Part shown: positions 4,656 through 59,920 of the stretch, piece after piece
How the letters are laid out: each line of letters starts with the position of its first letter
How positions within the stretch are numbered: position 1 is the first letter of the stretch
DNA from: an uncultured Gammaproteobacteria bacterium
Lineage (GTDB): Bacteria; Patescibacteriota; Patescibacteriia; Magasanikbacterales; UBA922
Direction of reading: 5' to 3'
Length of the DNA stretch: 63,205 nt
Assembly: GCA_964612105.1 (NCBI GenBank)
Contig: CAZTEU010000004.1
Span: 60,897 to 124,101, forward strand
Program-made: the position numbers and the translations under genes
Notes under the pieces: generated by a model
Databases searched by the model: none
Seen by the model: the letters and a program-made list of their open reading frames with translations, nothing else
Told to the model about the DNA's origin: nothing

Positions 4656-4753
4656 ATATATAGATTATATCAGATTTCTTAACACACAACTTGTATATTG
4701 ACAAAACAGGCACTATAGTGTAGTGTTTTATTAACAAAACAGAGAGGTGAATC

Positions 4754-4999
4754 ATGGCACAATGTCCTTCATGCGGACACCTGTACGGACTGTTCAAGGT
4801 GAGGCGCAGACCGTCTGTCCAGTCCTGTCCCAGTTGTGGGTGGGATCCGACCTCGTCGTCGAGTAGCGACGACGACTACGATCCCAATATGGATCCCTAT
4901 CACGACCCAAGAAGTGGGAGGGGGTCTCGCTACCAGAGCGGTGGCATTCCTGGCGGAGGAAGCACCGGAAGCGGAAGTCGTGGTGGGCGTGGACGTTAG
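4754..4999 (+). CDS. Small GC-rich orphan with two CxxC motifs and a Gly/Arg/Ser-rich tail
   Basis: CPSCG twice; upstream TTGACA-17-TATAGT and GAGGTG SD. Confidence 0.65.
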   Translation: MAQCPSCGHLYGLFKVRRRPSVQSCPSCGWDPTSSSSSDDDYDPNMDPYHDPRSGRGSRYQSGGIPGGGSTGSGSRGGRGR

Positions 5000-5014
5000 T
5001 CTGCACACATTCTA

Positions 5015-5084
5015 AGGGGGAGACGATCGTGAAAACAGTAGGGATCGTCAAACTCAAAACAACACCTGTAAAGGTGTTTTTTTG
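5015..5084 (+). repeat. 70-bp direct repeat, copy 1 (hairpin plus terminator)
   Basis: Identical to 5430-5499; GACGATC/GATCGTC stem, then AACACCT-GTAA-AGGTGTT-T run. Confidence 0.9.
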
Positions 5085-5244
5085 TTTTATGACATTAGAA
5101 AAATAATTAATTCAGTTGATTTTAAACGAGCATCTATTGACAGCCGGCCGTTTTTGCGCTACGCTAACATCACTTAATCCGAGCCTAGAAATATAAACCT
5201 ACGGCTGCGGAAATTAGCGCTATATGCGCAGAGAGGTGAGAGTG

Positions 5245-5409
5245 ATGACATTTTGGAGAAACTGGGAGTGGAGGAGCTGTTCTTCCTGCTTTGGAACGGG
5301 CTGGGTAAGTGTCATGCGACATGACGACGATGTAGATGGTGATGAAGTGAGGTGCACTGTGTGCAACGGCAGAGGAAAGGTCAAGGTCGCCAAGGATGAC
5401 GACGACTGA
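5245..5409 (+). CDS. DnaJ-type CxxCxGxG zinc-finger microprotein
   Basis: CSSCFGTG and CTVCNGRG; GAGGTG SD; upstream TTGACA. Confidence 0.7.
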   Translation: MTFWRNWEWRSCSSCFGTGWVSVMRHDDDVDGDEVRCTVCNGRGKVKVAKDDDD

Positions 5410-5429
5410 GACGTCTTCATAAAATTTAT

Positions 5430-5499
5430 AGGGGGAGACGATCGTGAAAACAGTAGGGATCGTCAAACTCAAAACAACACCTGTAAAGGTGTTTTTTTG
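5430..5499 (+). repeat. 70-bp direct repeat, copy 2
   Basis: Identical to 5015-5084. Confidence 0.9.
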
Positions 5500-5581
5500 A
5501 TCTAGGATTGAGGGGTGCTAGAAGCGAGTATTTATTGACTTCCCTAGCTATTCTCTATAAAATATGTTTTAGGAGGTAAAA

Positions 5582-5797
5582 ATGTCTGGTACCAATAACA
5601 AGCACAGCTCGTCCTGTGAGAAAAGACAAATGCCAGCTCGCTCACTTGCAGAAGCATGTGAAATCGCACTCGATCCCAACAGGTGGAGCGACGAGACGAT
5701 AGAGCAAATGGAGCGTTTCCAACGCTACTGTGGCGTGTGTGAGCGTGTCGGGTGTGATTGCCTGTTCATCTTCAGGGACAGGGGAATGCGCAGATGA
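5582..5797 (+). CDS. Small Cys-containing orphan
   Basis: TTGACT-17-TATAAA promoter, AGGAGG SD, CGVC and CDC motifs; terminator AACACCT/AGGTGTT at 5884-5907. Confidence 0.55.
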   Translation: MSGTNNKHSSSCEKRQMPARSLAEACEIALDPNRWSDETIEQMERFQRYCGVCERVGCDCLFIFRDRGMRR

Positions 5798-5917
5798 GGT
5801 GGCACTCATGGTCTTTGCAGACAAAGGGAGCCCGAACACTCACGATGCACGAGCATACGGAGAAAGTTCGGGGCATCATAAAGAACACCTATAAAGGTGT
5901 TTTTTTGATATAAAGAT

Positions 5918-5945
5918 AAACGGGCTTATTAGAGGGCGTTAGAGC
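5918..5945. repeat. Array core copy A (degenerate, 10 mismatches)
   Basis: AAACGGGCTTATTAGAGGGCGTTAGAGC followed by TTTTTGTAC as after copy B. Confidence 0.6.
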
Positions 5946-5953
5946 TTTTTGTA

Positions 5954-6679
5954 CTACTTATTCTGCTCCCAAAGCATTGTAAACATAGCATCAAAAATAT
6001 CCACCATTGCTGGAACAGCAATAACCACAGCGAGGGAAGAAAGTTCTGGGCTCACTATCAACACCTTGTCTTTAAAAATATCCATCGTACTTTTGAAACC
6101 ATATTTCTTTGGTAAAAATTTCACCTCGCGTAACAGCTCCTTACTTGTAGGACTATCTTTTCTGGATTCCTCTGTAAGAAGAAGTTTTGTCTTTATTTTT
6201 GCCTTTGCTCTGTCTTTTCTGTATTGCACAAAGAATTCTTTATCCAATCCTTGCCAATGCTTTGCTGTTCCAATAATCTTGTACTCTTTTCCTTTATGCT
6301 CTTCTAACACTTCGTCATAAAACTTTTTTAATTCGTCCACTGTTTCAATAAATCTAAGCCCAACCATGTTGAGCTGTTTTTTTTCTAGTGATTCTAGAGA
6401 GGGGATAAGGTCTTCAAAAGAGGACACCTTCTTTTTGTAATGGTCTGCCACTCGTTGGGGCTTGTCTGCGTAAAATAACTGCTTATTCTTTCTGTAATAC
6501 ATCGTCACAAACCCTTTTTTTGACAGAGCCTTAAGAGTTGCGTACACGGTTGTGCGTTTTATACCCACATCTTTGGCTACCGCACTAGCAATAGCTCCGC
6601 CAGAGCGTAGAAGCGAGACATATATGTCTGCTTCTTGGTCAGAGAGCCCAAGATCCTTTAATGCTTGTTTTGAGGCCAT
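5954..6679 (-). CDS. TrmB-like HTH transcriptional regulator
   Basis: LKDLGLSDQEADIYVSLL...IKRTTVYATLKAL winged-HTH N-terminus. Confidence 0.85.
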   Translation of the reverse strand: MASKQALKDLGLSDQEADIYVSLLRSGGAIASAVAKDVGIKRTTVYATLKALSKKGFVTMYYRKNKQLFYADKPQRVADHYKKKVSSFEDLIPSLESLEKKQLNMVGLRFIETVDELKKFYDEVLEEHKGKEYKIIGTAKHWQGLDKEFFVQYRKDRAKAKIKTKLLLTEESRKDSPTSKELLREVKFLPKKYGFKSTMDIFKDKVLIVSPELSSLAVVIAVPAMVDIFDAMFTMLWEQNK

Positions 6680-6723
6680 ATTACTGTTGTCTAAATATTA
6701 AGACACTTTTTTACTATGCTTAT

Positions 6724-6800
6724 ATTATAGCTTATTTTAGCCATATTGTCAAGCCCTTATGTCTAAAACGGTTGACAAAAGCGGGAAAATAGGGTATAAT
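6724..6800. promoter_or_regulatory. Divergent sigma70 promoters
   Basis: Minus: TTGACA (6752-6747)-17-TATAAT (6729-6724); plus: TTGACA (6772-6777)-17-TATAAT (6795-6800). Confidence 0.8.
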
Positions 6801-6847
6801 GCTCTGTTAACAATCAAGAAGGTTGGAACAAAACATCGCTCTTTAAA

Positions 6848-6938
6848 ACATTCCCGCCCCCACCCATCTGCTTGGAGAGAGGCATATGAGTGGAGGCAGG
6901 GAATTATCCTTGGACCAAACGACCCTGGGAGGGGAAAA
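6848..6938 (+). ncRNA. Conserved structured 5' leader, copy 1
   Basis: Aligns without gaps to 9776-9686 with compensatory base-pair changes. Confidence 0.65.
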
Positions 6939-7490
6939 ATGTGTAAGAAAACCATTTCTATCGTTCAGGCAGTGCGTATGTCCGAGCTCGGTGAGGATGA
7001 GGTGATCATCACGCCAGTCATCGTGGGTCGCAAGCGCGTTTCCGCACTCGTGGAGTTCCGCGCAGCACCTGGGCTCGCAACACTGGTGGATTACCGTGAC
7101 GTCTATCACGGTACCAGAGGTATCCTGCTTGTTGCTGGGCGCGCATTTTACAATGTGTGTGGTTGCTGCCCAGCGCGACGCCCGGATGGGTTGCCTCGGG
7201 AGTACAAGGTCTATGAGGTCTTCCTTACGGGACGTCGAGAGAGGGAGGACATTCCCCACCTCGTTAAGCACTACAACGATGCCTATGCGGAGGGGCTTCG
7301 GAAGGCGATCGCACGTTCCGGTGTGAAAACGGTGGCCGTACGCGAGGCGGGCGAGTTCCAGAGCAAGTTCCGAGATCTCGGTGCGGAGATCGTGGAGCAC
7401 AACAAGTTCCGAAAGCATCTCAAGTGGGATCTCCCCGCGCGTGAGGTGGAGTCGATCTTGGATCGGCTCAAATACATCAAGGAGGACTAG
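6939..7490 (+). CDS. GC-rich orphan protein (183 aa)
   Basis: ATG after GGGAGGGG SD; the longer track ORF runs through the promoter and leader. Confidence 0.7.
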   Translation: MCKKTISIVQAVRMSELGEDEVIITPVIVGRKRVSALVEFRAAPGLATLVDYRDVYHGTRGILLVAGRAFYNVCGCCPARRPDGLPREYKVYEVFLTGRREREDIPHLVKHYNDAYAEGLRKAIARSGVKTVAVREAGEFQSKFRDLGAEIVEHNKFRKHLKWDLPAREVESILDRLKYIKED

Positions 7491-7636
7491 TCGCCGACAA
7501 GCGACAACAACAAAGGTTAAATGGCCGAGTACCTATACAAAATCTCGGCCCAATTCAAAAGAACATCTCACAAAGGTGTTCTTTTGTTTTAGGTTATTTG
7601 TTGTATGGTATAATTACTTCGTTATCAAATATTAAT

Positions 7637-9019
7637 ATGAGTTCAATTCTAATATTATTAGGAATAATCTTTTCCATTTTTGTAATTATACGTCCGTTTA
7701 GGGTTGGTAAAATTAAGATAGACATGGCTTCTGGACCCCTGCTTGTCCTGCTTGTTCTGTTGTTAATTAGGGTAATAGACCTAGATACAATATCTTTTGG
7801 AATATTAGGTGATGGACAAATAAAACCATGGGAAATAATGATAATATTCTTTTCTGTGGCATATGTGAGTATTAGTACAGATGTGACAGGTATTTTTGAT
7901 TATCTTGCGTATAAGGTTGTGCAGGCAGCAAAAGGAAGTGGAATAAAATTATTTGTGTTCTTCTACCTGTTTGCTGGAGTGTTAAGTATTTTTACATCCA
8001 ACGATATAGTTATACTTACGCTAACACCAATAATTTTCTACCTAAGTAAACATGCAAAAATTAATATTCTTCCTCTTTTGTTTGCAGAGTTTTTTGCTGC
8101 AAACACAATGAGCATGTTTTTGTATATAGACAATCCAACAAATATAATGGTTGTAAGTTCGTCAGGGATTGGATTTCTTGAATATGTAAAAGTAATGTGG
8201 TTACCAACGGTTGTTGCTGGTGTAAGCACAATCACTCTTCTTTATCTGGTGTTTAGGAACAAAATTACTAGGAAGTACAAAAGAACCAAAGCAACCATGT
8301 TTGAAGTGCGTAATTGGTTTGATGCAGTATTAAGCAGTGGGCTACTCCTTACAATGCTTATATTCCTTTCTGTTTCTCAGCACGTTGGAATGGATATTTG
8401 GAAAATAACTTTGTTTTTTTGTGTAGTGTTTATTGCAGAAGACATTTGTTTTGGTCTGTACTACAGAATGAGAGAACATAGTCTTACAGACACGCAAAAG
8501 AAAAAGAGTTTGGATGTGTTTAATATTCCAAAAGAGAAGAACGAGTTCTTAATTGCACTAAGAAGAATGCCATGGAAAATATTCCCATTTATTTTTACAT
8601 TCTTTGTGCTAGTGCAAGCATTAAATGATGTGGGTGTGATCTCGTCTATTGCTGTTTTTGTTTCTTCGTTTGCTACTTCACTTTGGTCCAGCATACTAGG
8701 CGTTGGCGCACTAAGTATAGTTTTGGCTAATGTTATGAATAATCAGCCAATGACAATTTTACTCCTAAACGTGCTATTAGATGATAGCTTTAGTCCGACA
8801 GGGATTGTTCATCAGGGGGCAGTATATGCTGTAATAGTTGCAAGTAATTTAGGGGCAAACATTACAATTGTTGGAGCTTTAGCTGGGTTAATGTGGAGAA
8901 AAATTCTAAGGACAAAGAATATAGAAATTTCGTATCTAGACTTTCTAAAGGTCGGAGTTCTAATTACTCCAATTGTGTTCTTAATAACAATAGCTACTCT
9001 TTATTTTGTTATTGCTTAA
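7637..9019 (+). CDS. ArsB/NhaD (ion transporter superfamily) permease
   Basis: SIFTSNDIVILTLTP, NPTNI, ANVMNNQP and ASNLGANITIVGALAGLMW motifs. Confidence 0.85.
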   Translation: MSSILILLGIIFSIFVIIRPFRVGKIKIDMASGPLLVLLVLLLIRVIDLDTISFGILGDGQIKPWEIMIIFFSVAYVSISTDVTGIFDYLAYKVVQAAKGSGIKLFVFFYLFAGVLSIFTSNDIVILTLTPIIFYLSKHAKINILPLLFAEFFAANTMSMFLYIDNPTNIMVVSSSGIGFLEYVKVMWLPTVVAGVSTITLLYLVFRNKITRKYKRTKATMFEVRNWFDAVLSSGLLLTMLIFLSVSQHVGMDIWKITLFFCVVFIAEDICFGLYYRMREHSLTDTQKKKSLDVFNIPKEKNEFLIALRRMPWKIFPFIFTFFVLVQALNDVGVISSIAVFVSSFATSLWSSILGVGALSIVLANVMNNQPMTILLLNVLLDDSFSPTGIVHQGAVYAVIVASNLGANITIVGALAGLMWRKILRTKNIEISYLDFLKVGVLITPIVFLITIATLYFVIA

Positions 9020-9031
9020 TCTTACACATAC

Positions 9032-9091
9032 AAAACAACGCCTTATTAGGCGCTGTTTTTGTTTGAGCTGGATACTAGAGGACGTTAGAAC
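9032..9091. repeat. Array junction B: hairpin plus 28-bp core (9064-9091)
   Basis: AAAACAACGCC/GGCGCTGTTTT then TGAGCTGGATACTAGAGGACGTTAGAAC. Confidence 0.9.
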
Positions 9092-9214
9092 TTTTTGTAC
9101 ACAAAAAATCACCTGATAAGGGTGATTCTTTGTTATCTTTTTTGTACAAACAAGAATGTGCCGAGTTTACGTGACGGCTGCACGGGGTGGCGAGTCCAAT
9201 CTTGCCAATTCCTC

Positions 9215-9685
9215 CTACAGAATTTTGAAGTTGAGCCTCACGGAGACGGACACCAGGTCCACCCCGCCGGCATAGCTGATGTATGCCACGGGAGTGGCAA
9301 CTTTCAGCGTCTTGCTGACTGGGAAGATCGGTACGATCGCCCCGCCAACGGCATAGGTGTTCTTTTTGGGGACCCAGCGCGTCAGTCCAGTGGCGCCAAC
9401 CAAGAAGTGCTTGTTCACTTTCTTGATAGCCCCGACGATCATCTGCGGCTGTACCACCAACTTGGTAGTCGGAGTGAACACTCCAACCTCCAGGAAAGCT
9501 GCCCAACCATCAGCGATGGGTTGTACAGCGTGGATTCCCAGGGCTGCGCCGACAGGCAGATCTTTGTCGACGTTGATGGCCTTTGGGAAAGCCATGTAGG
9601 TTCCCAGACCCAACGAGGCTCCCTGCGCCTCGAAGGCGATGAGGGAACAGAACAACGAAATGAGAAAGAACGAAGTGCGAGTCAT
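9215..9685 (-). CDS. GC-rich secreted orphan with beta-strand-rich (barrel-like) pattern
   Basis: Signal peptide (…AFEAQGA), alternating hydrophobic strands, C-terminal SVSVRLNFKIL. Confidence 0.6.
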   Translation of the reverse strand: MTRTSFFLISLFCSLIAFEAQGASLGLGTYMAFPKAINVDKDLPVGAALGIHAVQPIADGWAAFLEVGVFTPTTKLVVQPQMIVGAIKKVNKHFLVGATGLTRWVPKKNTYAVGGAIVPIFPVSKTLKVATPVAYISYAGGVDLVSVSVRLNFKIL

Positions 9686-9776
9686 GATTTCCCTCCCAGG
9701 GAAGTGTGGGGTCGGGCTTATTCCCGATCTCCACTCATATGCCTCTCTCTAGGCAGATGGGTGAAAATGGGAATGT
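9686..9776 (-). ncRNA. Conserved structured 5' leader, copy 2
   Basis: Homologous to 6848-6938; promoter TTGACA (9824-9819)-17-TATAAT (9801-9796). Confidence 0.65.
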
Positions 9777-9932
9777 CTTAACTTAATAACACAGCATTAT
9801 ATCATAAAAAACTATACTTGTCAAGTCTTTTTGGCTAAGTAAAGCCAAATATAGTCATTATGTATCTGATAATCAAACTACTTATTTGACAAAATGCCTA
9901 TAAATTAGCATAATACTACTGTCATAAATTAT

Positions 9933-11081
9933 GTGACAGAATATAGTATGAAACTAACGCCCCTAGGTTTTTCAAAAAACGAAGAGAAAGTTTATCTTTC
10001 TTTGTTTGAATTAGGTAAAACTCGTGCTGGAAAAGTGATAGAACACACTTCCCTGCATAGAAATTTGGTCTATACTGCTCTTGAGGCACTTTTGGAGCGT
10101 GATTTAATAACAAAGACACTGCAAGGAGGTGTAAGTGTGTTCTCAGCAAATAATCCAGATAGGTTAGTTGAAGAAATTGAAAGTAAAAAAAGTGAAGCAA
10201 TAGCAATAGCAGAAGAATTAAAGAAGAAAGTTGACCTACAAACAAGAGAAGTTGTAATTTTTGAGGGGGCTGAAGGTATAGAAAGAGCAATGCGCCAGAA
10301 TCTACAAGCTCAAAAAGGAAAAACAGTCTACGCATTGGGTGCTTCCGCAAATAACGAGACATCAGAATCGCAAATGTTTTCAAGAAAATATCATAATGAA
10401 TTGATTGAAAAAGGAATTTCTTTTAAAGCTCTGTACGGAAGAAATGTTGAGGACGGTATTGTTGAAGAAAAAAAGAAATTATCCAACGCAGAAGTAAAAT
10501 ATATGCCAACAAGCATTGAAGCACCCATGTGGTTTAATATTTGTGGGGATGTTAGTTCAATTATTTCAATGGACAAGAACCCCTTGGCAATCAACATAAA
10601 AAGTGAGTCCATTGCGGAAGGATTAAAACAATACTTTAATCACTTATGGAATCAAAAAGTAATGACATTTGAGGGAGACAGAGGGTTTAAACATGCATTT
10701 GGTGATATTTTAAAAACACTCCAAAGAGGAGATGAGCTAATGATTTTGGGAATTCCTGAATTTGATCAAGAGTTTATAAATATGATAAGGGATTTTCATA
10801 AAAAAAGAGCAGGGCAGGGAATTATTTCTAGAATACTGTTAAATGAGGGTGCAAAAGATATGGGAGAGACGCTTAGAAAAATTGCACACACCAAAATTAA
10901 ATATATGCAGCGCGGTGTAGTTACTCCTGCTGCCCTCTTAATTTACAAAAATAAAACATTAATTAGTCTGCCAAGCAGGAGGACTTTTATGCAGATAGAT
11001 GACAAAGAGACTACGCAGTCTTTCACACACCACTTCAATGAGCTGTGGAGTACAAAAGAAAAACAAGATTTAAAAATGTAG
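9933..11081 (+). CDS. TrmB-like regulator with duplicated C-terminal effector domain
   Basis: LGFSKNEEKVYLSLFELG HTH; two VVIFEG/VMTFEG-initiated domains. Confidence 0.8.
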   Translation: MTEYSMKLTPLGFSKNEEKVYLSLFELGKTRAGKVIEHTSLHRNLVYTALEALLERDLITKTLQGGVSVFSANNPDRLVEEIESKKSEAIAIAEELKKKVDLQTREVVIFEGAEGIERAMRQNLQAQKGKTVYALGASANNETSESQMFSRKYHNELIEKGISFKALYGRNVEDGIVEEKKKLSNAEVKYMPTSIEAPMWFNICGDVSSIISMDKNPLAINIKSESIAEGLKQYFNHLWNQKVMTFEGDRGFKHAFGDILKTLQRGDELMILGIPEFDQEFINMIRDFHKKRAGQGIISRILLNEGAKDMGETLRKIAHTKIKYMQRGVVTPAALLIYKNKTLISLPSRRTFMQIDDKETTQSFTHHFNELWSTKEKQDLKM

Positions 11082-11098
11082 ATTTGCAATATTCATAA

Positions 11099-11159
11099 AA
11101 AAACAACGCTAATCCCAGCGCTGTTTTTATTTGAGGTGGTTACTGGATGATGTTAGAAC
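11099..11159. repeat. Array junction C (core 11132-11159)
   Basis: Hairpin plus TGAGGTGGTTACTGGATGATGTTAGAAC; overlaps the stop codon of the neighbouring toxin-like gene. Confidence 0.85.
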
Positions 11160-11524
11160 TGGGTCTTCTCAAAGTTCCCCTGATCAATGTCTTCGATTGC
11201 ACTATCTAATGAATTAAGAATTAGAATCTTTGCTTTTTTATTATTCATTGACAGGTTTTCGCCAAACACCTTATCCTTTTTTAATCTAATCACAATTGGA
11301 ATGACAAGATTCTTTTGTTTATACATGAAAACAATTAATCTACCTGCCACCTTGTGAACCATTCTTAATTTAAATAGTTCTCCACCTGTATATCCCAGGT
11401 TCGAGAGTCGTACTTTCTGGCCACGCAATTTGTTTACAGCTTTTTTGATATCCTCCAACGAATAATATTTTTTAATCAGTTTGTATTCTTTTTGAAGAAA
11501 TGATTTCGTCAAAATCAGTATCAT
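11153..11524 (-). CDS. Putative RelE/ParE-like toxin
   Basis: Small basic protein, MILILTKSF start, LFKLRM..GRLIVF; downstream of an RHH-like gene. Confidence 0.5.
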   Translation of the reverse strand: MILILTKSFLQKEYKLIKKYYSLEDIKKAVNKLRGQKVRLSNLGYTGGELFKLRMVHKVAGRLIVFMYKQKNLVIPIVIRLKKDKVFGENLSMNNKKAKILILNSLDSAIEDIDQGNFEKTQF

Positions 11525-11529
11525 ACCTC

Positions 11530-11775
11530 CTATATATTTATTTTTTTGAGTGACTTACTTAGCTTATTTGTTTTTTCTATAATTTCTTTATCTGCAAATA
11601 CATCATCGTAGAATTCATTTTTTGCGTGCAAAGAAATACGCAAATCATCGTGAATATAAGCACGCATTGCCATTGTTAGTAATGCTTTTAGTGTTATTCC
11701 CTCTCTTTTTGTTTTTTTGAGTGCCTTCTCTTTTAGTTTTGCATCGCTCATGAATGTGACTTGTGTTTGGTTCAT
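11530..11775 (-). CDS. Putative RHH antitoxin (RelB/DinJ-like)
   Basis: QVTFMSDAKLKEKALKKTKREGITLKALL; own TTGACA-17-TATAGT promoter. Confidence 0.55.
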   Translation of the reverse strand: MNQTQVTFMSDAKLKEKALKKTKREGITLKALLTMAMRAYIHDDLRISLHAKNEFYDDVFADKEIIEKTNKLSKSLKKINI

Positions 11776-11836
11776 ATTGCTATATAGTTTATTACTACAT
11801 TTAAACTATATATTATGATTGAGTGTTTGTCAAGTA

Positions 11837-11897
11837 AAAAACAATACTAATCCTAGCGCTGTTTTAATTTGGGCTGGCTACTAGAGGACGTTAGAAC
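11837..11897. repeat. Array junction D (core 11870-11897)
   Basis: Hairpin plus TGGGCTGGCTACTAGAGGACGTTAGAAC. Confidence 0.9.
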
Positions 11898-12029
11898 TGG
11901 AATAATAAAAAAAGAACAAATTGTTCTTGTATGAAAGTCCATGTCCGCCCGCCCGTGCTTGTTGCTCGATGAGCGGACACGGACGGACGCGCTCCTTCTG
12001 GGCTCGTGCAGCGAAGGGGTGTAACACGG

Positions 12030-12335
12030 TCAGACTCTTGCGTGCTTTTGTACACGGGCTGCTTCGCTGGTAAGTCGTGGCTCTACGATCGAGGTGTCCT
12101 TTCCGTAACCTCGTGACCCATTGTTGACTATACAGCCGTTTTCCCAGGTGAGGTGGTGTGTGTGGCCTCTGTGAATGCAGCGGGCCACTTTGATCGGCTC
12201 CCAGTCTGCAAATCCTCTGGCGTATCCGACAAACAACCACTCAATTCCATCATTCCCCACAAGACTGTCTCCGCAGGTCAAACTCTCAAACTCATCTTGT
12301 GTGATTGCAGTCTTTTCAATGAGGTGTTGTAACAT
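12030..12335 (-). CDS. GC-rich orphan
   Basis: GGAGG SD upstream of ATG; 101-aa ORF. Confidence 0.6.
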   Translation of the reverse strand: MLQHLIEKTAITQDEFESLTCGDSLVGNDGIEWLFVGYARGFADWEPIKVARCIHRGHTHHLTWENGCIVNNGSRGYGKDTSIVEPRLTSEAARVQKHARV

Positions 12336-12602
12336 ATTGTCCTCCGTGCAAGGGGTATAAGCAAGTCAGGGTAGTATAATAATAGATGTGGGAGAAATAG
12401 GCAAGTTGGGATACAATGAGATGTATTGTGGTTGTAATAGAAAATAGCTTAAGTTAGTCAAACAAACGCTTAGACCTATTGACAAAAGGAGTTTTTTGTG
12501 TTAAGGTCTTTCCAGTTTTTCCTCTCGAGGATTTATCGTCAAGTGTGAAAGTCATACAAAGCGCGGTGATGGTCTCTGAGGGGTAATTCCTAGGAGGTCA
12601 TT

Positions 12603-12851
12603 ATGACAGCGCAGCCAGTAGAGGTCACTATCCTGTGGAATGGAGGATGGGATAGATACCTCGTCGACACAAGTATCACCGTCAGTGTTCCTGAAGCAGA
12701 GCTTCAGGGGAACGCCCGAATGTGGCCAACATTCGAGTGTGAGGAAGCCGAAGGTTCGTTCCTCAAAGCAAGCTTTAGTTCGGTCTTGAAAAAGTCCGTT
12801 ACCGAAGGTTGTGGGGTTCGCATTCTGAGGCGCCTCGGCGGCGGCGACTAA
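12603..12851 (+). CDS. GC-rich orphan
   Basis: AGGAGG SD; TTGACA at about 12479; about 100-nt leader. Confidence 0.6.
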   Translation: MTAQPVEVTILWNGGWDRYLVDTSITVSVPEAELQGNARMWPTFECEEAEGSFLKASFSSVLKKSVTEGCGVRILRRLGGGD

Positions 12852-12900
12852 TCGATGGCAAAAAAGCGGTACCTTTCGGGGTGCCGCTATTCTTTTCTAA

Positions 12901-12961
12901 AAAAACAACACCAGTCTTAATGTTGTTTTTAGGTGAGCCGAGTACTAGAGAGCGTCAGAGC
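12901..12961. repeat. Array junction E (core 12934-12961, 7 mismatches)
   Basis: Hairpin AAAAACAACA/TGTTGTTTTT plus TGAGCCGAGTACTAGAGAGCGTCAGAGC. Confidence 0.75.
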
Positions 12962-12981
12962 TGGGTGGGTGGTGTAAATTT

Positions 12982-13245
12982 CTACTTATAGACTTGCTCG
13001 TGTCCACCAACATCAATAAATATTACGTGAGTGTAGTTATTGTATTCTTCGAATATTAAGCGTATATTTCCCGAGACTGACACGGCTCTTTTTCCCAGCA
13101 TCAGACCTCGAAGTTTGTGGTTTTTTAGTGAAGTGTCGCTTGGGTCTTTTATAAGCCTTTCTATTGTTTTTGTAATTTTACTCTGAAGTTTGCATGGAAG
13201 CTTCTTAAATTGTTTTGTAAATCTTTTACTATAACTAATCTTCAT
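12982..13245 (-). CDS. RelE/YafQ-family type II toxin
   Basis: MKISYSKRFTKQFKKL...LKNHKLRG...VGGHEQVY. Confidence 0.9.
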   Translation of the reverse strand: MKISYSKRFTKQFKKLPCKLQSKITKTIERLIKDPSDTSLKNHKLRGLMLGKRAVSVSGNIRLIFEEYNNYTHVIFIDVGGHEQVYK

Positions 13246-13517
13246 AGTTTTTTCAGATAAGCTATCGCTTCATCTGCCTCCATTGGCTCGGTCACATTTA
13301 TTCCTTTCTTTGCCTCTTTACCTGCTTTTAATATTTCTTTTTCTTGTTGTACAGTGAGGCCGTTTTCTGTAATAAGAGGAAAAGGAACACCTTTTTGTAA
13401 TGTTATTTGTTTTAAGTAGAGTTTAATAGCTGTACTCATGTCTAATCCAAGACGATCTAGTATTTTTTTTGCAGAGGTCTTTGTTTTTTTGTCTACACGA
13501 ATTTGTATTGTAGTCAT
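13242..13517 (-). CDS. RelB/DinJ-family antitoxin
   Basis: MTTIQIRVDKKTK...LGLDMSTAIKLYLKQI...GVPF; 4-bp overlap with toxin. Confidence 0.9.
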   Translation of the reverse strand: MTTIQIRVDKKTKTSAKKILDRLGLDMSTAIKLYLKQITLQKGVPFPLITENGLTVQQEKEILKAGKEAKKGINVTEPMEADEAIAYLKKL

Positions 13518-13592
13518 AAATATATATTTGTATAAATACATAATAACATGTCTGTAGTGATGTTGTCAATACAGCTAATATTATTTCATCTT

Positions 13593-13697
13593 TCCAGACT
13601 GTCCCGCTACCCAATGTTAGAATAAAAAACACTGCCGTATGTAGCAGTGTTTTAGCTCTTTCAGAAAATTGAGCTGGCTACCAGAGGACGTTAGAAC
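13593..13697. repeat. Array junction F, long type (core 13670-13697)
   Basis: TTCCAG…CCCAATGTTAGAAT, hairpin AAAACACTGC/GCAGTGTTTT, then TGAGCTGGCTACCAGAGGACGTTAGAAC. Confidence 0.9.
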
Positions 13698-13702
13698 CCA
13701 AG

Positions 13703-14545
13703 TTAGGGCAAGAATTTAATGCTATCAACCATTTCATCTAATATTGTTTCAAAATTATTTATATCACCTCTTTCAATAATGGTTTGCGAGGTGATAACTA
13801 TGCTACTAAGTTCATTTTTTGGATTAAATAAGTAGTATTGTGCTGCTAGGGGTCCAGGAGATGGGTATATCGGAGAAAAACTTACTTTTGCTACTGTTAT
13901 ACCATGGGTGTTTTGAGATATGGTGCATTTTTTAATATCGCCCCACACCATTAGAGATTTACCGCTGTTTTTATAATCATATTCGCCGCTATCGATCCAC
14001 TTACAAACAGACTCAACCTTTTCTTTGTTCAGCCCCAGAGCGTCATCTTCCCAAGATAATCCGCGGTCTCCGCCCAGCCCGGATTTTCCATCAGTTATTG
14101 CTATGTATCGAGGGCTTCCAAAAAAATTTGAGAGTGTTAGATAGTAAAAGGGAATTCCCTCTTTTCCTTGTTCAACAATTTCTCTTGGGCTTATGCCATG
14201 CGGTTGCTGCACCTGTCCGATTTCACCAAAAGAGGCTGGGTACTCAAACGTGATGCCTAGATTTGAATCTGAAAATGCTTTTTTAATTGTGTTCTCAGGG
14301 TTGTTTATTAAATTAGTGAGTCTATCTATCTGCTCTTTTTTTATTCTTTTGGCTTCGTAATATCTGTCTGAATTTTCTTTGTTTGGGTCAATAACAGTTT
14401 GTTTAGGTGTCTCATCTTCACTAGAAATTTTTAAGGAGAAGTCCCCTTTGGTGTTTTGAGTAGAAGACATAATGACAAACACTAGCGCGAAAGATGTGGC
14501 CAGCAAAGGAATCCAAAATTCCTGACTCTTAAAATCTATCTTCAT
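13703..14545 (-). CDS. Membrane-anchored/secreted hypothetical protein
   Basis: Single N-terminal hydrophobic segment; 280 aa. Confidence 0.7.
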   Translation of the reverse strand: MKIDFKSQEFWIPLLATSFALVFVIMSSTQNTKGDFSLKISSEDETPKQTVIDPNKENSDRYYEAKRIKKEQIDRLTNLINNPENTIKKAFSDSNLGITFEYPASFGEIGQVQQPHGISPREIVEQGKEGIPFYYLTLSNFFGSPRYIAITDGKSGLGGDRGLSWEDDALGLNKEKVESVCKWIDSGEYDYKNSGKSLMVWGDIKKCTISQNTHGITVAKVSFSPIYPSPGPLAAQYYLFNPKNELSSIVITSQTIIERGDINNFETILDEMVDSIKFLP

Positions 14546-14604
14546 ATTTTTTATTTAATATGTTGTGATTATACCACAGTTCGGCATTCCAGTCCCCAGT
14601 AACA

Positions 14605-14665
14605 AAAAACAACGCTAATCTTAGCGCTGTTTTCATTTGAGCTGGCTACTAGAGGGCGTTAGAAC
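14605..14665. repeat. Array junction G (core 14638-14665)
   Basis: Hairpin plus TGAGCTGGCTACTAGAGGGCGTTAGAAC. Confidence 0.9.
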
Positions 14666-14672
14666 TTTTTGT

Positions 14673-15206
14673 CTACTTAGGGCCTAGTAAATCCTTGTGA
14701 AATTCATACAAAGAGCTTCCAACCATTTCAATTGCTTGTGTTTCTTTGTTATCGCTATTTATCAATACAGATTGAGCTTTTTCTGTGTCAACAAGCGCCA
14801 TTTCTACTGTTCCGTCTTTGTGCCCCTCCATGTAATACCCTCTTTTCTTTATCTTTTTAAGAATATTCGCATAATCTGAGTTTGTCATTGAGCGAACTCT
14901 CCAGACCTCATGTTTTTTGTGCTTGTTAAATTCCTCAAATATTTTATCGACTGTAAAAAGACGTTCGTTCACCTTCTGCCTGAAATTATCTGGATCCTCT
15001 ATTTTGTAATAATATCTGTTTCCCATTTTTGAGTGGTTAATAAAACCCTTTTCTTCCAAAGAGCGCAGATATTCCTGGCAACTTGTTCGTAGTATTCCTG
15101 TTTTGTCCGCGAGCTCAGATACTTTTGCACTTCCAAGTCTAAGAAGAGTTCTATATACAAGAATTTCTTTATCAGAAAAATTAAATTGTCTTAATAATTG
15201 TTCCAT
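14673..15206 (-). CDS. TrmB-like HTH regulator
   Basis: FNFSDKEILVYRTLLRLG...ILRTSCQEYLRSLEEKGF. Confidence 0.8.
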   Translation of the reverse strand: MEQLLRQFNFSDKEILVYRTLLRLGSAKVSELADKTGILRTSCQEYLRSLEEKGFINHSKMGNRYYYKIEDPDNFRQKVNERLFTVDKIFEEFNKHKKHEVWRVRSMTNSDYANILKKIKKRGYYMEGHKDGTVEMALVDTEKAQSVLINSDNKETQAIEMVGSSLYEFHKDLLGPK

Positions 15207-15832
15207 ATATTTTGGTACATTTCGCTAACCTCTTTATTCTTAAAACCAAATACTTGTAATTGGTCCCCAAACTCTACAAAAGCAACCTTGTTACTCCAAA
15301 TAAATAGCATTACATCTCCTTTTCGTTCTTTCACCTTTGGTGCAATTCCTTTTTGGTTGGATCTTTTGTGGTAGAAGGGCCAATAATCTCCAAGGTAATT
15401 AGCCAAGTGACTACTTTGTCCAATTATATGCATTTTCTTTTTTTCTCGAAGTGATTTCTCCAGCAATATCTTTACTCCATGAACATCTTTGGAATATGAG
15501 CGCAGTCTTAAAGGTTGCTCTGTCTTCTTATATTCCTTATGCATCGCAGGCACAAACTTCCTTACAGCACTCTCTTGCCTTTTCACATACTGCTTTAATG
15601 CGCCAATAGGTAGGGCGCGGAAGTCCAATACATCTCTGTATTTAGTAGAAGTGACAAGCTTCTTTTTTTTGAGTGACTCTAATACTAAATATGTGGTTGG
15701 TCTTTTAGTCCCCGCTCTTTTTGATATACCTAAAACACCGCCCTTCTTCATTGAGAGTAGGGCGCTGTATACAAGAGCTTCCTTGTGAGAAAGTCCAAGG
15801 TTTTCTAGGGCTTTTATACGCTTAATATCCAT
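15191..15832 (-). CDS. TrmB-like HTH regulator
   Basis: LENLGLSHKEALVYSALL...TKRPTTYLVLESL. Confidence 0.8.
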   Translation of the reverse strand: MDIKRIKALENLGLSHKEALVYSALLSMKKGGVLGISKRAGTKRPTTYLVLESLKKKKLVTSTKYRDVLDFRALPIGALKQYVKRQESAVRKFVPAMHKEYKKTEQPLRLRSYSKDVHGVKILLEKSLREKKKMHIIGQSSHLANYLGDYWPFYHKRSNQKGIAPKVKERKGDVMLFIWSNKVAFVEFGDQLQVFGFKNKEVSEMYQNIWNNY

Positions 15833-15932
15833 ATTGCTGTCAATAATAACATCAATTATCAATATATAAATAATATTATATAGTGCACTGTCCGTCAAGG
15901 GGGCGGACATTCATTCTTTTTTGGAGGTCGTT

Positions 15933-16574
15933 ATGCTTGTTCATTCTACTAACTGCAGAAGGCGGACGATTCCGCGCCTGAAAAGACCGCGGAGCTGTTT
16001 CCGCGTTCCCACGAATACCGTGCTGGTCGTGGTCGATCCGCAGAAAGCCTTCGGTTCGGTCGTGTCAGTTCCGCATGTCGAAGAGGCGGTCTCCAACATG
16101 CGTAAGGTGATCTCTTACTGGCGCAAGCGCGGAGGGAAGGTGATCCTCACGAGGCACATCTACAAGGATGAGAGTTGCGTCGGATCGGTCTCAGATTTCA
16201 TCCCGCCGATTTTCGGCGTGTTGAGGGAAGGTTCGCCGATGGGCGAGTTCCATGATGGCATCTGGTTCGATGGCGTCATCATCATCGACAAAACCGAGTT
16301 CAACGCCTTCATCGGGACGACGCTCGAGAAGCAGCTCCGCAAGCTCGGCGCCTCCCATTTCCTCGTCTGCGGTCTCACGACCCCGATCTGCGTGGAGGGT
16401 ACTGCGCGTGGCGGTGTTGAGCGTGGTTTCAAGGTGACGGTCGTCTCGGACGCTTGTGCATCTCAGCCCATGGGTGAGGAATCCGCTCGGGAGGCACACG
16501 ACTCTGCCATCGTTCGACTCGGCTACATCTTCGCTAAGGTGGTCAGCACCGAGGATCTCCTGTCGCTGCAGTAG
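15933..16574 (+). CDS. Isochorismatase-like cysteine hydrolase (GC-rich)
   Basis: D-K-C triad motifs VVVDPQ, IDK, TPICV; GGAGG SD; terminator AACATCT/AGGTGTT at about 16620. Confidence 0.85.
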   Translation: MLVHSTNCRRRTIPRLKRPRSCFRVPTNTVLVVVDPQKAFGSVVSVPHVEEAVSNMRKVISYWRKRGGKVILTRHIYKDESCVGSVSDFIPPIFGVLREGSPMGEFHDGIWFDGVIIIDKTEFNAFIGTTLEKQLRKLGASHFLVCGLTTPICVEGTARGGVERGFKVTVVSDACASQPMGEESAREAHDSAIVRLGYIFAKVVSTEDLLSLQ

Positions 16575-16639
16575 GCAAAAAGGTTTCCGCGTTTTCCTGA
16601 AAAAACGCGAGCACAAAAGAACATCTGTAAAGGTGTTTT

Positions 16640-16770
16640 TTTGTTTAGTTCCAACCTCCCCACACCATTCCAGTCGCCAGTACCCAAGGTTAGAACCAAA
16701 AACACTGCTAGATTTAGCAGTGTTTTAACTCTTTCGGGAAAATGAGCTGGCTACTAGAGGACGTTAGAAA
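16640..16770. repeat. Array junction H, long type (core 16743-16770)
   Basis: Same layout as F; TGAGCTGGCTACTAGAGGACGTTAGAAA. Confidence 0.9.
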
Positions 16771-16947
16771 TGGAATTGTACTACAGTGACTTAGTTTGTC
16801 TGCTAAGTCCCCACAACATGCTGAGTGTTGTTCTCATGAATTCTACAAAATCACCACCCTCAACTAAAATCAATTTTTTGGTTTGGAGAATATTCAAAAA
16901 TACTGCATAAATGCAGTATTTTTGAAGCGAATGTGAAAATCATGATT

Positions 16948-17424
16948 TTAATCAAGTTTTTTGAAATTAAGCCAAGTCCCGCTTGCCGACTTTTCATCTT
17001 CAGGGAGAAGGCCAACAAGAGCCTCTGTAAGACTATTGTTTTCATGGCCTGCTCTGAACAGAGCCCTTTCATCATCAATTCTCTCACCCTCTCTGAAGAC
17101 AGACCCCTCATGTAAATCTGCAGCCATTTGACGTAGAACACTATGTTGATGAGCCAGAACAATTTGTTTTGCAATGAGCTTCATATAAGATTCGTCTGCT
17201 TCTTCAATGGCATCGCCATAAGGGTCAGACTCTCTACTGGGAAGATGTTCTTTCCCGAGTTCACGAACCTCAGCAAGAACATCATCAAATGTCGGAACTT
17301 TATCTTGGTAAGCACGGTCAAGTTCCTCAAAATCAAGTCGATTATCCATCTCTGATTCTTGGTTAGAGGTATCGCTCTCAATATCTTTTTTGGGTACTTT
17401 CCTCCCCATTCCTTCATTATTCAT
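16948..17424 (-). CDS. Acidic hypothetical protein, copy 1
   Basis: 158-aa ORF; start uncertain. Confidence 0.6.
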   Translation of the reverse strand: MNNEGMGRKVPKKDIESDTSNQESEMDNRLDFEELDRAYQDKVPTFDDVLAEVRELGKEHLPSRESDPYGDAIEEADESYMKLIAKQIVLAHQHSVLRQMAADLHEGSVFREGERIDDERALFRAGHENNSLTEALVGLLPEDEKSASGTWLNFKKLD

Positions 17425-17544
17425 AATGAAATAATATAATTTATTAATAATATATTAACTATACACTAATTAATCCAAAGTTTCAAGACCTTTTGAATGC
17501 TGACCAATTCCTGTGGTAATTAATCAGACGTGTGGCTGACATTT

Positions 17545-17675
17545 CTTGTTCAGTTCTAATCTCCTCACACCATTCCAGTCGCCAGCACCCAAGGTTAGAA
17601 CCAAAAACACTGCTAGATTTAGCAGTGTTTTAACTCTTTCGGGAAAATGAGCTGGCTACTAGAGGACGTTAGAAA
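17545..17675. repeat. Array junction I (core 17648-17675)
   Basis: Core identical to H. Confidence 0.9.
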
Positions 17676-17852
17676 TGGAATTGTACTACAGTGACTTAGT
17701 TTGTCTGCTAAGTCCCCACAACATGCTGAGTGTTGTTCTCATGAATTCTACAAAATCACCACCCTCAACTAAAATCAATTTTTTGGTTTGGAGAATATTC
17801 AAAAATACTGCATAAATGCAGTATTTTTGAAGCGAATGTGAAAATCATGATT

Positions 17853-18329
17853 TTAATCAAGTTTTTTGAAATTAAGCCAAGTCCCGCTTGCCGACTTTTC
17901 ATCTTCAGGGAGAAGGCCAACAAGAGCCTCTGTAAGACTATTGTTTTCATGGCCTGCTCTGAACAGAGCCCTTTCATCATCAATTCTCTCACCCTCTCTG
18001 AAGACAGACCCCTCATGTAAATCTGCAGCCATTTGACGTAGAACACTATGTTGATGAGCCAGAACAATTTGTTTTGCAATGAGCTTCATATAAGATTCGT
18101 CTGCTTCTTCAATGGCATCGCCATAAGGGTCAGACTCTCTACTGGGAAGATGTTCTTTCCCGAGTTCACGAACCTCAGCAAGAACATCATCAAATGTCGG
18201 AACTTTATCTTGGTAAGCACGGTCAAGTTCCTCAAAATCAAGTCGATTATCCATCTCTGATTCTTGGTTAGAGGTATCGCTCTCAATATCTTTTTTGGGT
18301 ACTTTCCTCCCCATTCCTTCATTATTCAT
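17853..18329 (-). CDS. Acidic hypothetical protein, copy 2
   Basis: Identical to 16948..17424. Confidence 0.6.
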   Translation of the reverse strand: MNNEGMGRKVPKKDIESDTSNQESEMDNRLDFEELDRAYQDKVPTFDDVLAEVRELGKEHLPSRESDPYGDAIEEADESYMKLIAKQIVLAHQHSVLRQMAADLHEGSVFREGERIDDERALFRAGHENNSLTEALVGLLPEDEKSASGTWLNFKKLD

Positions 18330-18553
18330 AATGAAATAATATAATTTATTAATAATATATTAACTATACACTAATTAATCCAAAGTTTCAAGACCTTTTG
18401 AATGCTGACCAATTCCTGTGGTAATTAATCAGACGTGTGGCTGACATTTCTTGTTCAGTTCTAATCTCCTCACACCATTCCAGTCGCCAGCACCCAAGGT
18501 TAGAACCAAAAACACTGCTAGATTTAGCAGTGTTTTAAGGGTTTTGGAAAATG

Positions 18554-18625
18554 AGCGGACGACCGGAATCGAACCGGCATCATCGGCTTGGAAGGCCGAG
18601 ATAATAACCATTATACGACGTCCGC
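18554..18625 (-). tRNA. tRNA-Gly(TCC)
   Basis: Acceptor GCGGACG/CGTCCGC, anticodon loop CTTCCAA, T-loop TTCGATT. Confidence 0.95.
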
Positions 18626-34996: not shown

Positions 34997-35298
34997 TTAG
35001 CACCTATAATGCTCTGGCTTATACGGCCCATCTTTTGCAACCCCAATATATTCCGCCTGCTCATCTGTCATTTCTGTAATACTTACTCCAAGTTTGTCTA
35101 GGTGCAATCTTGCAACCTCCTCGTCTAATTGTTTTGGAAGAGTGTATACCCCTACTTCATAATTATTTTTCACCAAATCAATCTGTGCAAGCACCTGATT
35201 ACTAAAACTATTGCTCATTACAAAACTTGGATGACCTGTAGCGCAACCAAGATTCATTAGGCGACCTTCTTCTACATAAATATTGAATGACCATCGTC
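34997..35298 (-). pseudogene. ahcY: Duplicated 3' fragment of ahcY
   Basis: Near-identical to 35888-36190 with a 1-nt indel near its 5' end; ends HYRC instead of HYRY. Confidence 0.9.
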
Positions 35299-59556: not shown

Positions 59557-59692
59557 AATTACATTATAGTGTGTAAATAAAACTTTTAATTTTACATAAC
59601 GTTTGCGTATATGCGAACGTTGTGAATACTTGTATGCCAACATTGGCGAAGCCAACGTACAAGTATGAGTAATTTGGGCGGAGCCCATGGAC

Positions 59693-59920
59693 TTATTTTT
59701 TCCCTTTTCTAAAGTCGCCTTCTTTTAATCCACTGTGAAGCAAAATCGACTGAAATGTACCATGTGGTATTTCCTTCTTCCTAACTTTAATAGTGACTTT
59801 TAATGTTTTCCCTTTTGTAGCTTTTTCATATCTGGCATGCGATCCTTTTTGCCTAACAAAAAAGAAGCCCTTTTCTGATAGGACTTTTAGTACAATTTTT
59901 AATGAAATTGGTCTAGGCAT
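59693..59920 (-). CDS. HicA-family toxin
   Basis: KGFFFVRQKGSH and EIPHGTFQSIL. Confidence 0.9.
   Translation of the reverse strand: MPRPISLKIVLKVLSEKGFFFVRQKGSHARYEKATKGKTLKVTIKVRKKEIPHGTFQSILLHSGLKEGDFRKGKK

Follow-up and report, generated by a model that had tools for sequence, protein, structure and literature searches.

tRNA-anchored gene-cassette arrays with a shared 28-nt core in Magasanikbacteria-type bacteria of the candidate phyla radiation

Bacteria of the candidate phyla radiation (CPR; Patescibacteria) have tiny genomes with few recognisable mobile elements and many orphan genes, and their acquisition of accessory genes is largely obscure. Elsewhere, recombinase-less modules with 28-bp sites are moved by host Xer proteins, as in the integrative mobile elements exploiting Xer (IMEX) at dif and the pdif modules of Acinetobacter plasmids. 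Streptococcal cis-mobilizable elements (CIMEs), found in accretion arrays of integrative and conjugative elements (ICE) and integrative and mobilizable elements (IME), are att-flanked and have no recombination genes. Tandem insertion at the 3′ end of a small-RNA gene is known from the ssrA islands of Dehalococcoides, at the tmRNA (PMC3146451), and from the tycheposons and island remnants of Prochlorococcus, at tRNAs (10.1101/2020.12.28.424599). E. coli has tRNA-linked repeats of largely unknown function, which follow a tRNA or rRNA gene in sets of one to five and in the same orientation (PMC8144298). The subject of this study is a stretch of 63,205 nt (the window) from a 945-kb Patescibacteriota genome in eight contigs (G000), in which copies of a 28-nt core divide positions 5918-18625 into gene-bearing modules behind a tRNA-Gly(TCC) gene. 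The region belongs to a class of gene-cassette arrays anchored at tRNAs that is spread order-wide among CPR bacteria of the Magasanikbacteria type.

Read toward the tRNA, the arrays are built of cassettes of ~0.5-3 kb, in each of which a promoter accompanies one to three accessory genes, orphans for the most part; after these come a 28-nt element, a spacer of 4 or 16 nt and a terminator hairpin. The element is the reverse complement of the core and has the form GTTCTAAC-RTC-~12 variable nt-(A)GCTCA. The gene of the anchor tRNA closes in the same order: tRNA 3′ end, trailer, terminator. The last 5-11 nt of the element copy the 3′ end of the anchor tRNA of that array, and its constant part is common to all arrays. 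The reading favoured here, with a rough probability of one half, is that the element is a cassette-borne attachment site which would recombine with the tRNA 3′ end, or with the element of another cassette, through a trans-acting enzyme.

As in integrons, the cassettes are small and unrelated and hold mostly orphan or toxin-antitoxin genes, the sites keep one orientation at gene 3′ ends, and a stop codon sometimes falls within the site. A recombinase in trans is also possible, as for clusters of attC sites lacking integron integrases (CALINs). Unlike integrons, the arrays have no adjacent intI, a linear motif beside a terminator in place of a folding imperfect palindrome, promoters within the cassettes and no common Pc, and the 3′ end of a tRNA as anchor instead of attI. 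With the Xer-dependent modules they share recombinase-less units and 28-bp sites, and Xer is the sole tyrosine recombinase in several array-bearing genomes. In contrast to those modules, the core lacks the 11-6-11 dyad; its arms TGAGCTGGCTA and GACGTTAGAAC are not inverted repeats when the consensus is inspected against the general plan of dif, the dif sites of these genomes not having been identified. The arrays are tied to tRNAs and not to the replication terminus or plasmids (the GC skew of contig C4, which holds the window, is too noisy to put a terminus at the array), and their cores are all direct, whereas pdif sites alternate in orientation. The CIMEs are similar in that they are flanked by att sites, carry no recombination genes and stand in tandem where integration takes place, but they rely on a related element with an integrase at that site, and no such element was found in the array-bearing genomes here.

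In the islands of Dehalococcoides and Prochlorococcus, as in the arrays, insertions follow one another downstream of a small-RNA gene, modules are delimited by direct repeats akin to its 3′ end, some units have no integration genes, and the cargo is strain- or species-specific. Newer elements displace older ones outward in those islands, an entry order that is a proposal here. Their repeats, unlike these, are exact 20-40-nt copies of the RNA-gene end, as against 5-11 nt and a family-wide constant sequence, and their complete elements carry a serine or tyrosine integrase, as against ~1-kb modules with none near 23 arrays. Among the marks of a tRNA island, an intact tRNA with an insertion at its 3′ side is present; direct repeats of at least 15-20 nt of the tRNA end and an own integrase are absent. 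The E. coli repeats are alike in lying behind tRNA genes in one orientation and in ending in a copy of the upstream RNA 3′ end, but they have 18-19 nt identical with the tRNA end and are short and non-coding, with no protein-coding cassettes between them (PMC8144298). A dispersed repeat of the REP or MITE type was set aside, all copies being in one locus here and in one or two loci in other genomes. CRISPR was discarded as well, since the intervals are 454-3146 nt long and hold promoter-bearing genes, not 25-50-nt spacers. The locus lacks at least one defining feature of each of the closest known systems, and the literature searches made found no paper describing it.

Core copies and junctions of the array

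The core 28-mer TGAGCTGGCTACTAGAGGACGTTAGAAC comes from an initial annotation of the window, which listed nine copies in the same orientation, nearly all behind a terminator-like hairpin, in an array starting at the tRNA's 3′ end. All three statements held. Six copies differ from the 28-mer at exactly one position, where the chance expectation is 0, and all are on the plus strand (9064-9091, 11870-11897, 13670-13697, 14638-14665, 16743-16770 and 17648-17675). The cores at 11132-11159 (5 mismatches) and 12934-12961 (7 mismatches), also on the plus strand, are the sole further matches at up to 7 mismatches when the whole genome is searched by mismatch count and profile. The internal TAA of the former is the stop codon of the open reading frame (ORF) 11153-11524. 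At the distal boundary the plus-strand core 5918-5945 is decayed, with the right two thirds alone recognisable. Its 10 mismatches are at chance level by count alone, the genome having 13 such 28-mers; in its favour are a profile E-value of 9e-4, the match of 28 nt to 9073-9100 (89%) and its own hairpin and context. Mismatch and profile scans found no core outside the array in the remainder of the 945-kb genome. The farthest copy is the most decayed, as had been noted, but the mismatches form no gradient of decay, numbering 10, 1, 5, 1, 7, 1, 1, 1 and 1 from the far end to the tRNA. Each of the six good copies has a private mismatch, with no shared conversion tract. Conservation is sharply bounded: in pairwise comparison the copies are on average 83.5% identical within the core, 51% within the 30 nt on its left side and ~30% farther out.

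An A-run, a hairpin and a T-run precede every one of the nine cores. The hairpins belong to two array-specific families and one generic terminator type; the generic type stands at the distal copy (5864-5914) and also elsewhere in the genome. Hairpins of family A lie 3-4 nt from the core (11098-11130, 11836-11868 with a partly decayed stem, and 14604-14636), and those of family B are followed by a 16-nt spacer. The B type is found in an older form at ~13626-13653 and, with a spacer termed sp1, at ~16698-16727 and ~17603-17632. The cores at 9064 and 12934 are preceded by hairpins at 9031-9063 and 12900-12932. Families A and B alternate along the array, and the two types of junction have little in common beyond the core. 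The orientation of the core is constant regardless of gene strand, the permease, the 382-aa TrmB-like protein and the isochorismatase being examples of genes that read oppositely.

The anchor is an intact tRNA-Gly(TCC) gene at 18553-18625 on the minus strand (ARAGORN; Rfam tRNA, 62.5 bits), with the 3′ end ...CGTCCGCTCA. In the junction alignment this end takes the exact position of the core in the internal junctions. The tRNA-adjacent junction (18459-18552, plus strand) consists of a left arm (18459-18497), GGTTAGAACC, a B hairpin (~18508-18537) and a 15-nt trailer, sp2. On the left side of the tRNA, 18447-18551 matches the segments left of the cores at 16743 and 17648 (junctions 16637 and 17542) with 90-94% identity, the spacer excepted. 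The core at 12934, which closes the RelB/ParE module, has the left end GAGCCGAGTA, the type found in tRNA-Thr-anchored arrays of other genomes. Its sequence suggests that the element travels with the gene preceding it. The proposal that modules were added one at a time at the tRNA end was not borne out, given the alternation of A and B hairpins and this Thr-type left end in an internal core.

An inverted core-like arm, TTCTAATCTCCTC + 9 nt + CAGTCGCCAGC, lies to the left of hairpin B at 17554-17592 and 18459-18497 and, more diverged, at 16649-16687. With this arm the tRNA-proximal junction forms a ~120-nt imperfect palindrome with the ends TTCTAAY...GTTAGAA, and the arm beside the tRNA pairs with the tRNA's own 3′ end (12/15). 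The arm 17554-17592 (2 mismatches in 13, and a second block) is paired with the core in single-strand folds. An attC-type fold was rejected for the array as a whole, in agreement with the annotation: the flank-core duplex is significant at the 17648 copy only (z = -3.2) and at background in the others, and across 51 junctions own pairs are not better than cross pairs (p = 0.94). A tRNA-like minihelix of the core with its gene-side flank gave no signal, a promoter reading of the core failed the -10 criteria, and no known RNA family in Rfam is matched by the element.

tRNA-linked cores across the order

The comparison set comprised 240 genomes of the order, which are species representatives and in many cases fragmented. 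Strict scans recovered the core in its own genome only, both with a 27-mer at up to 3 mismatches in 107 family genomes and with exact degenerate patterns in genome contigs and JGI metagenome contigs. The phage collection gave no match, and one isolated 18-mer in a 161-kb viral contig of IMG/VR was judged a chance hit. A repeat private to this genome was nevertheless rejected, since relatives with 4-8 mismatches are seen by blastn of the whole junction and by profile. The 128-nt junction has matches of 77-78% in G162, a genome of another family, and core-like 28-mers with 4-8 mismatches stand in arrays of G162, G029 and G017.

An alignment of 17 junctions gives an A-run, hairpin and T-run, a spacer of 4 or 16 nt and the core TGAGCT-nnn-T-nn-T-nGAGGAyGTTAGAAC. 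The hairpin stem covaries, with 76.9% of cells paired versus 68.4% in shuffled alignments (0/500 reach the observed value) and 35-57% with the partners slid; six stem pairs have double, compensatory changes. A sequence model of the junction, for which E-values are rough, finds matches in 94 of the 240 genomes. Full-length matches lie ~1 kb apart on one strand and come from at least two families; G003, for example, has six, G027 five and G218 four.

A core profile with a cut-off of at least 14 bits was run over 43 fetched regions. It found 80 cores in 41 loci of ~40 genomes of the order, the search in related CPR genomes which the annotation had called for. Their consensus is ntGAGCtgntTngtnnanGAngTtAGAACtn, with a constant right half, GAyGTTAGAAC. 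A hairpin precedes 72 of the 80 cores, and a sense-strand ORF ends within -25 to +60 nt of 48 of them, at a median gap of 14 nt. The intervals between cores measure 454-3146 nt (median module 1033 nt) and contain genes with their own promoters. Cores are confined to one or two tRNA-linked loci per genome and are not scattered at ordinary gene ends, the outcome that would have spoken for a REP-like repeat.

In 33 of the 41 loci an antisense tRNA lies just past the last core, at a median distance of 1042 nt. The anchors are mostly tRNA-Gly(TCC); Thr(GGT) is used in G002, G024, G027, G045 and G092, Gly(CCC) in G027 and G131, and Gly(GCC) or Trp(CCA) in a few. The interval from tRNA-Met/Gly(GCC) to tRNA-Gly(TCC), in which the present array lies, is also the place of many others. 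The left end of the core follows the anchor, being GAGC[T/G/A] with Gly, GAGCCG with Thr(GGT) and TTGCAGG with Trp. In the Thr-anchored array of G045 it is CCGAGCCGTT, in which 10 identical nt equal the tRNA end and two trailer bases. The tRNA-adjacent junction has the hairpin and spacer of the internal junctions in G137, G218, G219, G002 and this genome. At the level of sequence, these comparisons show that the element is conserved across families and that its left end covaries with the anchor tRNA.

Cargo turns over between the arrays of different species. Singletons account for 146 of the 177 non-nested ORFs in and around them, and the sole recurrent cargo family is that of TrmB-like winged-helix proteins, with eight members in five genomes. 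Pfam matches of cargo in other genomes include Fic/DOC, ResIII helicase, radical SAM, Asp/Glu racemase, ClpP-like, transglutaminase-like and Bro-N domains, with no recombinase or transposase among them. Among four species of a single genus an alignment is obtained for both flanks, at 72-98% identity, but not for the array interiors; module content and order differ between relatives, and the fixed arrangement that would have argued against cassettes is not seen. Between G078 (family f1, L105:8239-8420) and G206 (family f4, L113:8722-8903), 183 nt covering a hairpin, a core and the end of a 70-aa cassette gene are 90% identical, versus 65-75% for the flanking housekeeping genes. This common segment may reflect a recent cassette transfer.

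Modules and local history

The four TrmB-like regulators, the permease and the hydrolase named in the annotation are all recognised as cargo. Module 1 (5946-9063, mixed strands) encodes a TrmB-like protein (5954-6679, minus), an orphan (6759-7490, plus) and a CitMHS/ArsB permease (7598-9019, plus). In module 2 (9092-11131, mixed) the gene callers disagree on an orphan, placed at 9095-9781 (plus) or 9215-9685 (minus), which is followed by a 382-aa TrmB-like gene (9933-11081, plus). Module 3 (11160-11869, minus) has orphans of 81 aa (11530-11775) and 123 aa (11153-11524) and a consensus promoter at 11833-11805. Module 4 (11898-12933, mixed) has the highest G+C content of the modules, 48%, and two small orphans (12030-12335, minus; 12603-12851, plus). 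Module 5 (12962-13669, minus) holds a RelB antitoxin (13242-13541) and a ParE/YafQ-like toxin (12982-13245) behind a promoter at 13569-13540. Two toxin-antitoxin pairs had been proposed; RelB/ParE stands, but the 123-aa and 81-aa pair was dropped, with no family match. A 280-aa orphan (13703-14545) fills module 6 (13698-14637, minus). Module 7 (14666-16742, mixed) encodes two TrmB-like proteins (14673-15206 and 15191-15910, both minus) and an isochorismatase (15921-16574, plus), with its own terminators at 16587-16646. Modules 8 and 9 (16637-18446, minus) are a 905-bp unit present twice, each with a 158-aa orphan (16948-17424 and 17853-18329), a promoter and a terminator. Neither the 280-aa nor the 158-aa orphan has relatives among 5.8 billion proteins. 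Consensus promoters TTGACA-17-TATAAT lie inside modules 1, 2, 3, 5, 7, 8 and 9, and in modules 7-9 the genes have their own terminators ahead of the element.

The 382-aa TrmB-like cassette gene is polymorphic or decaying in the population. Contigs from other metagenomes carry an in-frame deletion of 18 nt at 10435-10452 (L050, L052), and in L040 29 nt at 10702-10732 are replaced by 45 nt, which splits the gene.

G039, a genome of the same genus, has matching flanks: tRNA-Gly(GCC) and tRNA-Met border the interval at one end, tRNA-Gly(TCC) and then an amidotransferase gene at the other. The interval itself contains different genes and no core. The terminator 5864-5914, with its flanks, is 90% identical to one that stands 390 bp from tRNA-Gly(TCC) in G039, and 5918-18552 is therefore an insertion relative to that genome. 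A contig with a 70%-identical amidotransferase has yet other genes behind the tRNA. Behind tRNA-Gly(TCC) in G039 (L024:16900-17265) and in L035:1-300, neither with a cassette array, there are G+C-rich, palindrome-rich non-coding stretches such as CTGCCTGCCGGCAGGCAGGCG. The ENA contig L034 (1265 nt) matches the window up to 18896 in the amidotransferase gene and is unrelated to it from there on, the contig being a chimera or else a rearranged variant.

The two copies of the 905-bp tandem unit are identical at 899 of 905 positions, with all 6 differences in the first 45 nt. This genome has two copies, and a 390-kb scaffold and another contig of the same population have one. The unit is bracketed by ~105-nt repeats. 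The single-copy form reads A'L-hairpin-sp1-core-module-AL-hairpin-sp2-tRNA, and in the double-copy form the middle junction is AL-hairpin-sp1, a hybrid of the left arm of the right copy and the spacer of the left copy. The hybrid places the crossover within the 46-nt hairpin segment identical in all copies. By its sequence the duplication bears the marks of an unequal homologous exchange, or else of an excision followed by re-entry via the hairpin segment, and it would say nothing of the first arrival of the cassette. The two-copy state may also be an assembly artefact.

Other repeated modules occur in the window. A 278-nt direct repeat (34997-35274 and 35888-36165; 99%, spacing 891) brackets a ~0.6-kb module with a look similar to that of the 905-bp unit. 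At 4680-5915 there are three tandem plus-strand modules of ~410 bp, each with a promoter and a Cys-rich micro-ORF (4754-4999, 5224-5409 and 5582-5797). Behind the first and the second stands a 78-nt element, 96% identical between the two (5015-5092 and 5430-5507), with the generic terminator at its end; contigs from other metagenomes frequently break at 5015 or 5430.

A separate, attC-like cassette array lies 41 kb away at 59594-63205, up to the end of contig C4, which breaks off within one more site. Small minus-strand genes, hicAB among them, lie between the sites. Examples of the complementary boxes are GTACAAC...GTTGTAC at 61572-61678 and GTACAAT...GTTATAA at 62626-62810. The boxes are followed by GT (..AYAACGT) and resemble the GTTCTAACGT end of the tRNA-array element. 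The most IntI-like recombinase of the genome (C8:9776-10588; TIGR02249, 214 bits, under the cut-off) is encoded 1.3 kb from tRNA-Ser(CGA), and its homologues are often at contig ends. It may belong to this attC-like array.

Attachment site and rival explanations

The cassette-site reading fits best with what is seen: the orientation does not vary, cores are confined to tRNA 3′ ends, the left end matches the anchor, the right half is constant across families, and cargo turns over between species. We infer that the element is a DNA recombination site. Each cassette would carry the 28-nt element as its attachment site; on entry the tRNA would be left intact, and the previous trailer and terminator would come to follow each cassette. 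The enzyme is not encoded in or near the arrays and would have to act in trans; it could be the housekeeping Xer-type tyrosine recombinase or, equally, an unrecognised protein. A bolder form of this reading is put forward tentatively. It is a 'tRNA-integron', a new gene-capture platform in which the tRNA 3′ end would serve as attI and the site would be linear and unstructured, its constant half recruiting the trans enzyme and its variable end matched to the target.

The ORFs of the array in the window encode no recombinase domain, as the annotation had stated. The genome has four tyrosine recombinases, all on other contigs and each within ~3.5 kb of a contig end (C2:150184-151170, C8:9776-10588, C5:756-1709 and C1:227526-228425). 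A single tyrosine recombinase is found in G039, which has no array. It is an orthologue of the housekeeping Xer-type protein at C2:150184-151170, as are those of the three array-bearing genomes described below. The Xer type is the only recombinase common to all array-bearing genomes examined, and across the array-bearing families the Xer proteins are 31-42% identical.

Several observations weigh against an attachment site. No recombinase was found within ~10 kb of this and 22 other arrays in tblastn searches with four Xer/IntI-like proteins, and G000 encodes no serine recombinase. The IntI/XerA-like protein C8:9776-10588 was rejected as the array enzyme, its relatives occurring in 107 of the 240 genomes regardless of arrays. 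The array-positive genomes G118, G196 and G218, which are 97-100% complete, have one tyrosine recombinase each. By inspection the core is without the dyad symmetry of tyrosine-recombinase core or dif sites, and it does not pair with its flanks. Its left end is identical to the anchor tRNA over 5-11 nt only, and the fetched DNA of 8 of the 41 loci contains no tRNA. In this genome the core has only TGAGC (GCTCA) and its position in common with tRNA-Gly; the similarity of 11/20 is not above that to other tRNAs, and the idea that the core here is a copy of the tRNA-Gly 3′ end was given up, other tRNAs being equally good. Some 25 contigs from other metagenomes (ENA, JGI, Logan) are 99.7-100% identical to the array with the same module order, and no cassette was gained or lost among them except for the 905-bp unit, present in one or two copies. 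The sampled population is therefore clonal and says little on mobility. The 905-bp event itself, judged from its junctions, looks like homologous rather than site-specific recombination. Variation in the core also has a 3-nt periodicity (permutation p ~0.011, from sequences that are not independent), which an attachment site leaves unexplained. The entropy by phase is 0.85, 0.48 and 1.09, and variation is lowest at the second position in the frame xTG AGC TGG CTA CTA GAG GAC GTT AGA ACn.

A role in RNA is unlikely, if the best placed of the alternatives. The reverse-complement core, spacer and terminator would mimic the end of a tRNA transcript and direct the processing, termination or stability of accessory-gene mRNAs, and the arrays would be ordinary variable islands with a common 3′ module. 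No recombinase would be necessary. The order of the tRNA-oriented units (gene, element, spacer, terminator) agrees with this, as do the sense ORF ends near 48 of the 80 cores, but the genes of modules 7-9 are already terminated ahead of the element, and the orientation of the core is constant where neighbouring genes (permease, 382-aa TrmB-like, isochorismatase) read oppositely. The element ends as its anchor tRNA does (GCTCA or CGGCTC) and starts with the T-loop-like GTTCTAAC; an acceptor-like helix partner is absent, however, and so is an Rfam family match. The tRNA-linked repeats of E. coli likewise lie behind tRNA genes and end in a copy of the tRNA 3′ end (PMC8144298). Against a general 3′ signal, the cores are restricted to one or two tRNA-linked loci per genome instead of gene ends at large, and the differences in cargo between species with conserved flanks would be unexplained.

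Accretion by homology, with no recombinase, is a less probable account. Circular or linear DNA carrying a junction (hairpin and core, 60-130 nt) would enter, for example after natural transformation, by a RecA-dependent Campbell-type or double crossover, with the core serving as a homology handle that gene conversion would keep uniform. In its favour, a spare recombinase is lacking in several array-bearing genomes, the hybrid middle junction of the 905-bp unit is what unequal crossover in the identical 46-nt hairpin segment gives, and a second module in the window, of 0.9 kb, is bracketed by a 278-nt duplicate of a gene 3′ end. A passive handle, however, should not preserve the boxes TGAGC and GAyGTTAGAAC across families whose Xer proteins are 31-42% identical. 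The conserved block is only 28 nt long and sharply bounded, and the adjoining hairpin diverges. A length of ~28 nt is near the lower limit for RecA-mediated exchange, and the part common to A and B junctions, barely more than the core, is of this order. Nor do the private mismatches of the six good copies, without a shared conversion tract, fit a handle under gene conversion.

It is quite improbable that the cores are fossil scars, that is, decayed attL or attR sites of integrase-bearing islands that were serially integrated at the tRNA gene and later lost their integrases. Independent decay cannot converge on one non-tRNA consensus in ~40 genomes and at four different tRNAs, integrase remnants are absent from the 23 arrays and the modules are far below the size of integrase-bearing islands, even if the location at tRNA 3′ ends, the direct orientation and the decayed distal copy would suit scars, with comparable remnants in Prochlorococcus islands (10.1101/2020.12.28.424599).

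Least credible of all is that the core codes for the first residues of a micro-peptide (x-S-(W/C/S)-L-V-x-D-V-R-T), read from the strand that does not encode the tRNA: variation is concentrated at third codon positions of that frame (p ~0.011), pN/pS is 0.41 in it versus 0.65-1.8 in the other five, and it is open in all intact copies examined but one (the decayed 5918 copy opens with a stop codon), but the first codon is frequently a non-start (TGG, GGG, GAG or GCG), there is no consistent ribosome-binding site, the stop-to-stop frames of ~29 codons have unrelated tails, the complementary frame has the same third positions and leaves the strand undecidable, and the core lies directly after a terminator.

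The analysis turns a single odd locus into a searchable family: its consensus site is defined, its geometry behind tRNA genes is fixed and its instances number in the dozens. The cargo of the family includes toxin-antitoxin, Fic, restriction-type helicase, regulator and transporter genes. If the element acts in RNA, it would be a new conserved 3′ module that mimics tRNA ends. If it is a recombination site, the arrays would represent an integron-like capture with a new type of site and an unrecognised or co-opted enzyme. A tRNA-integron, if real, would explain how accessory genes are exchanged in genomes of ~1 Mb without the usual mobile elements.

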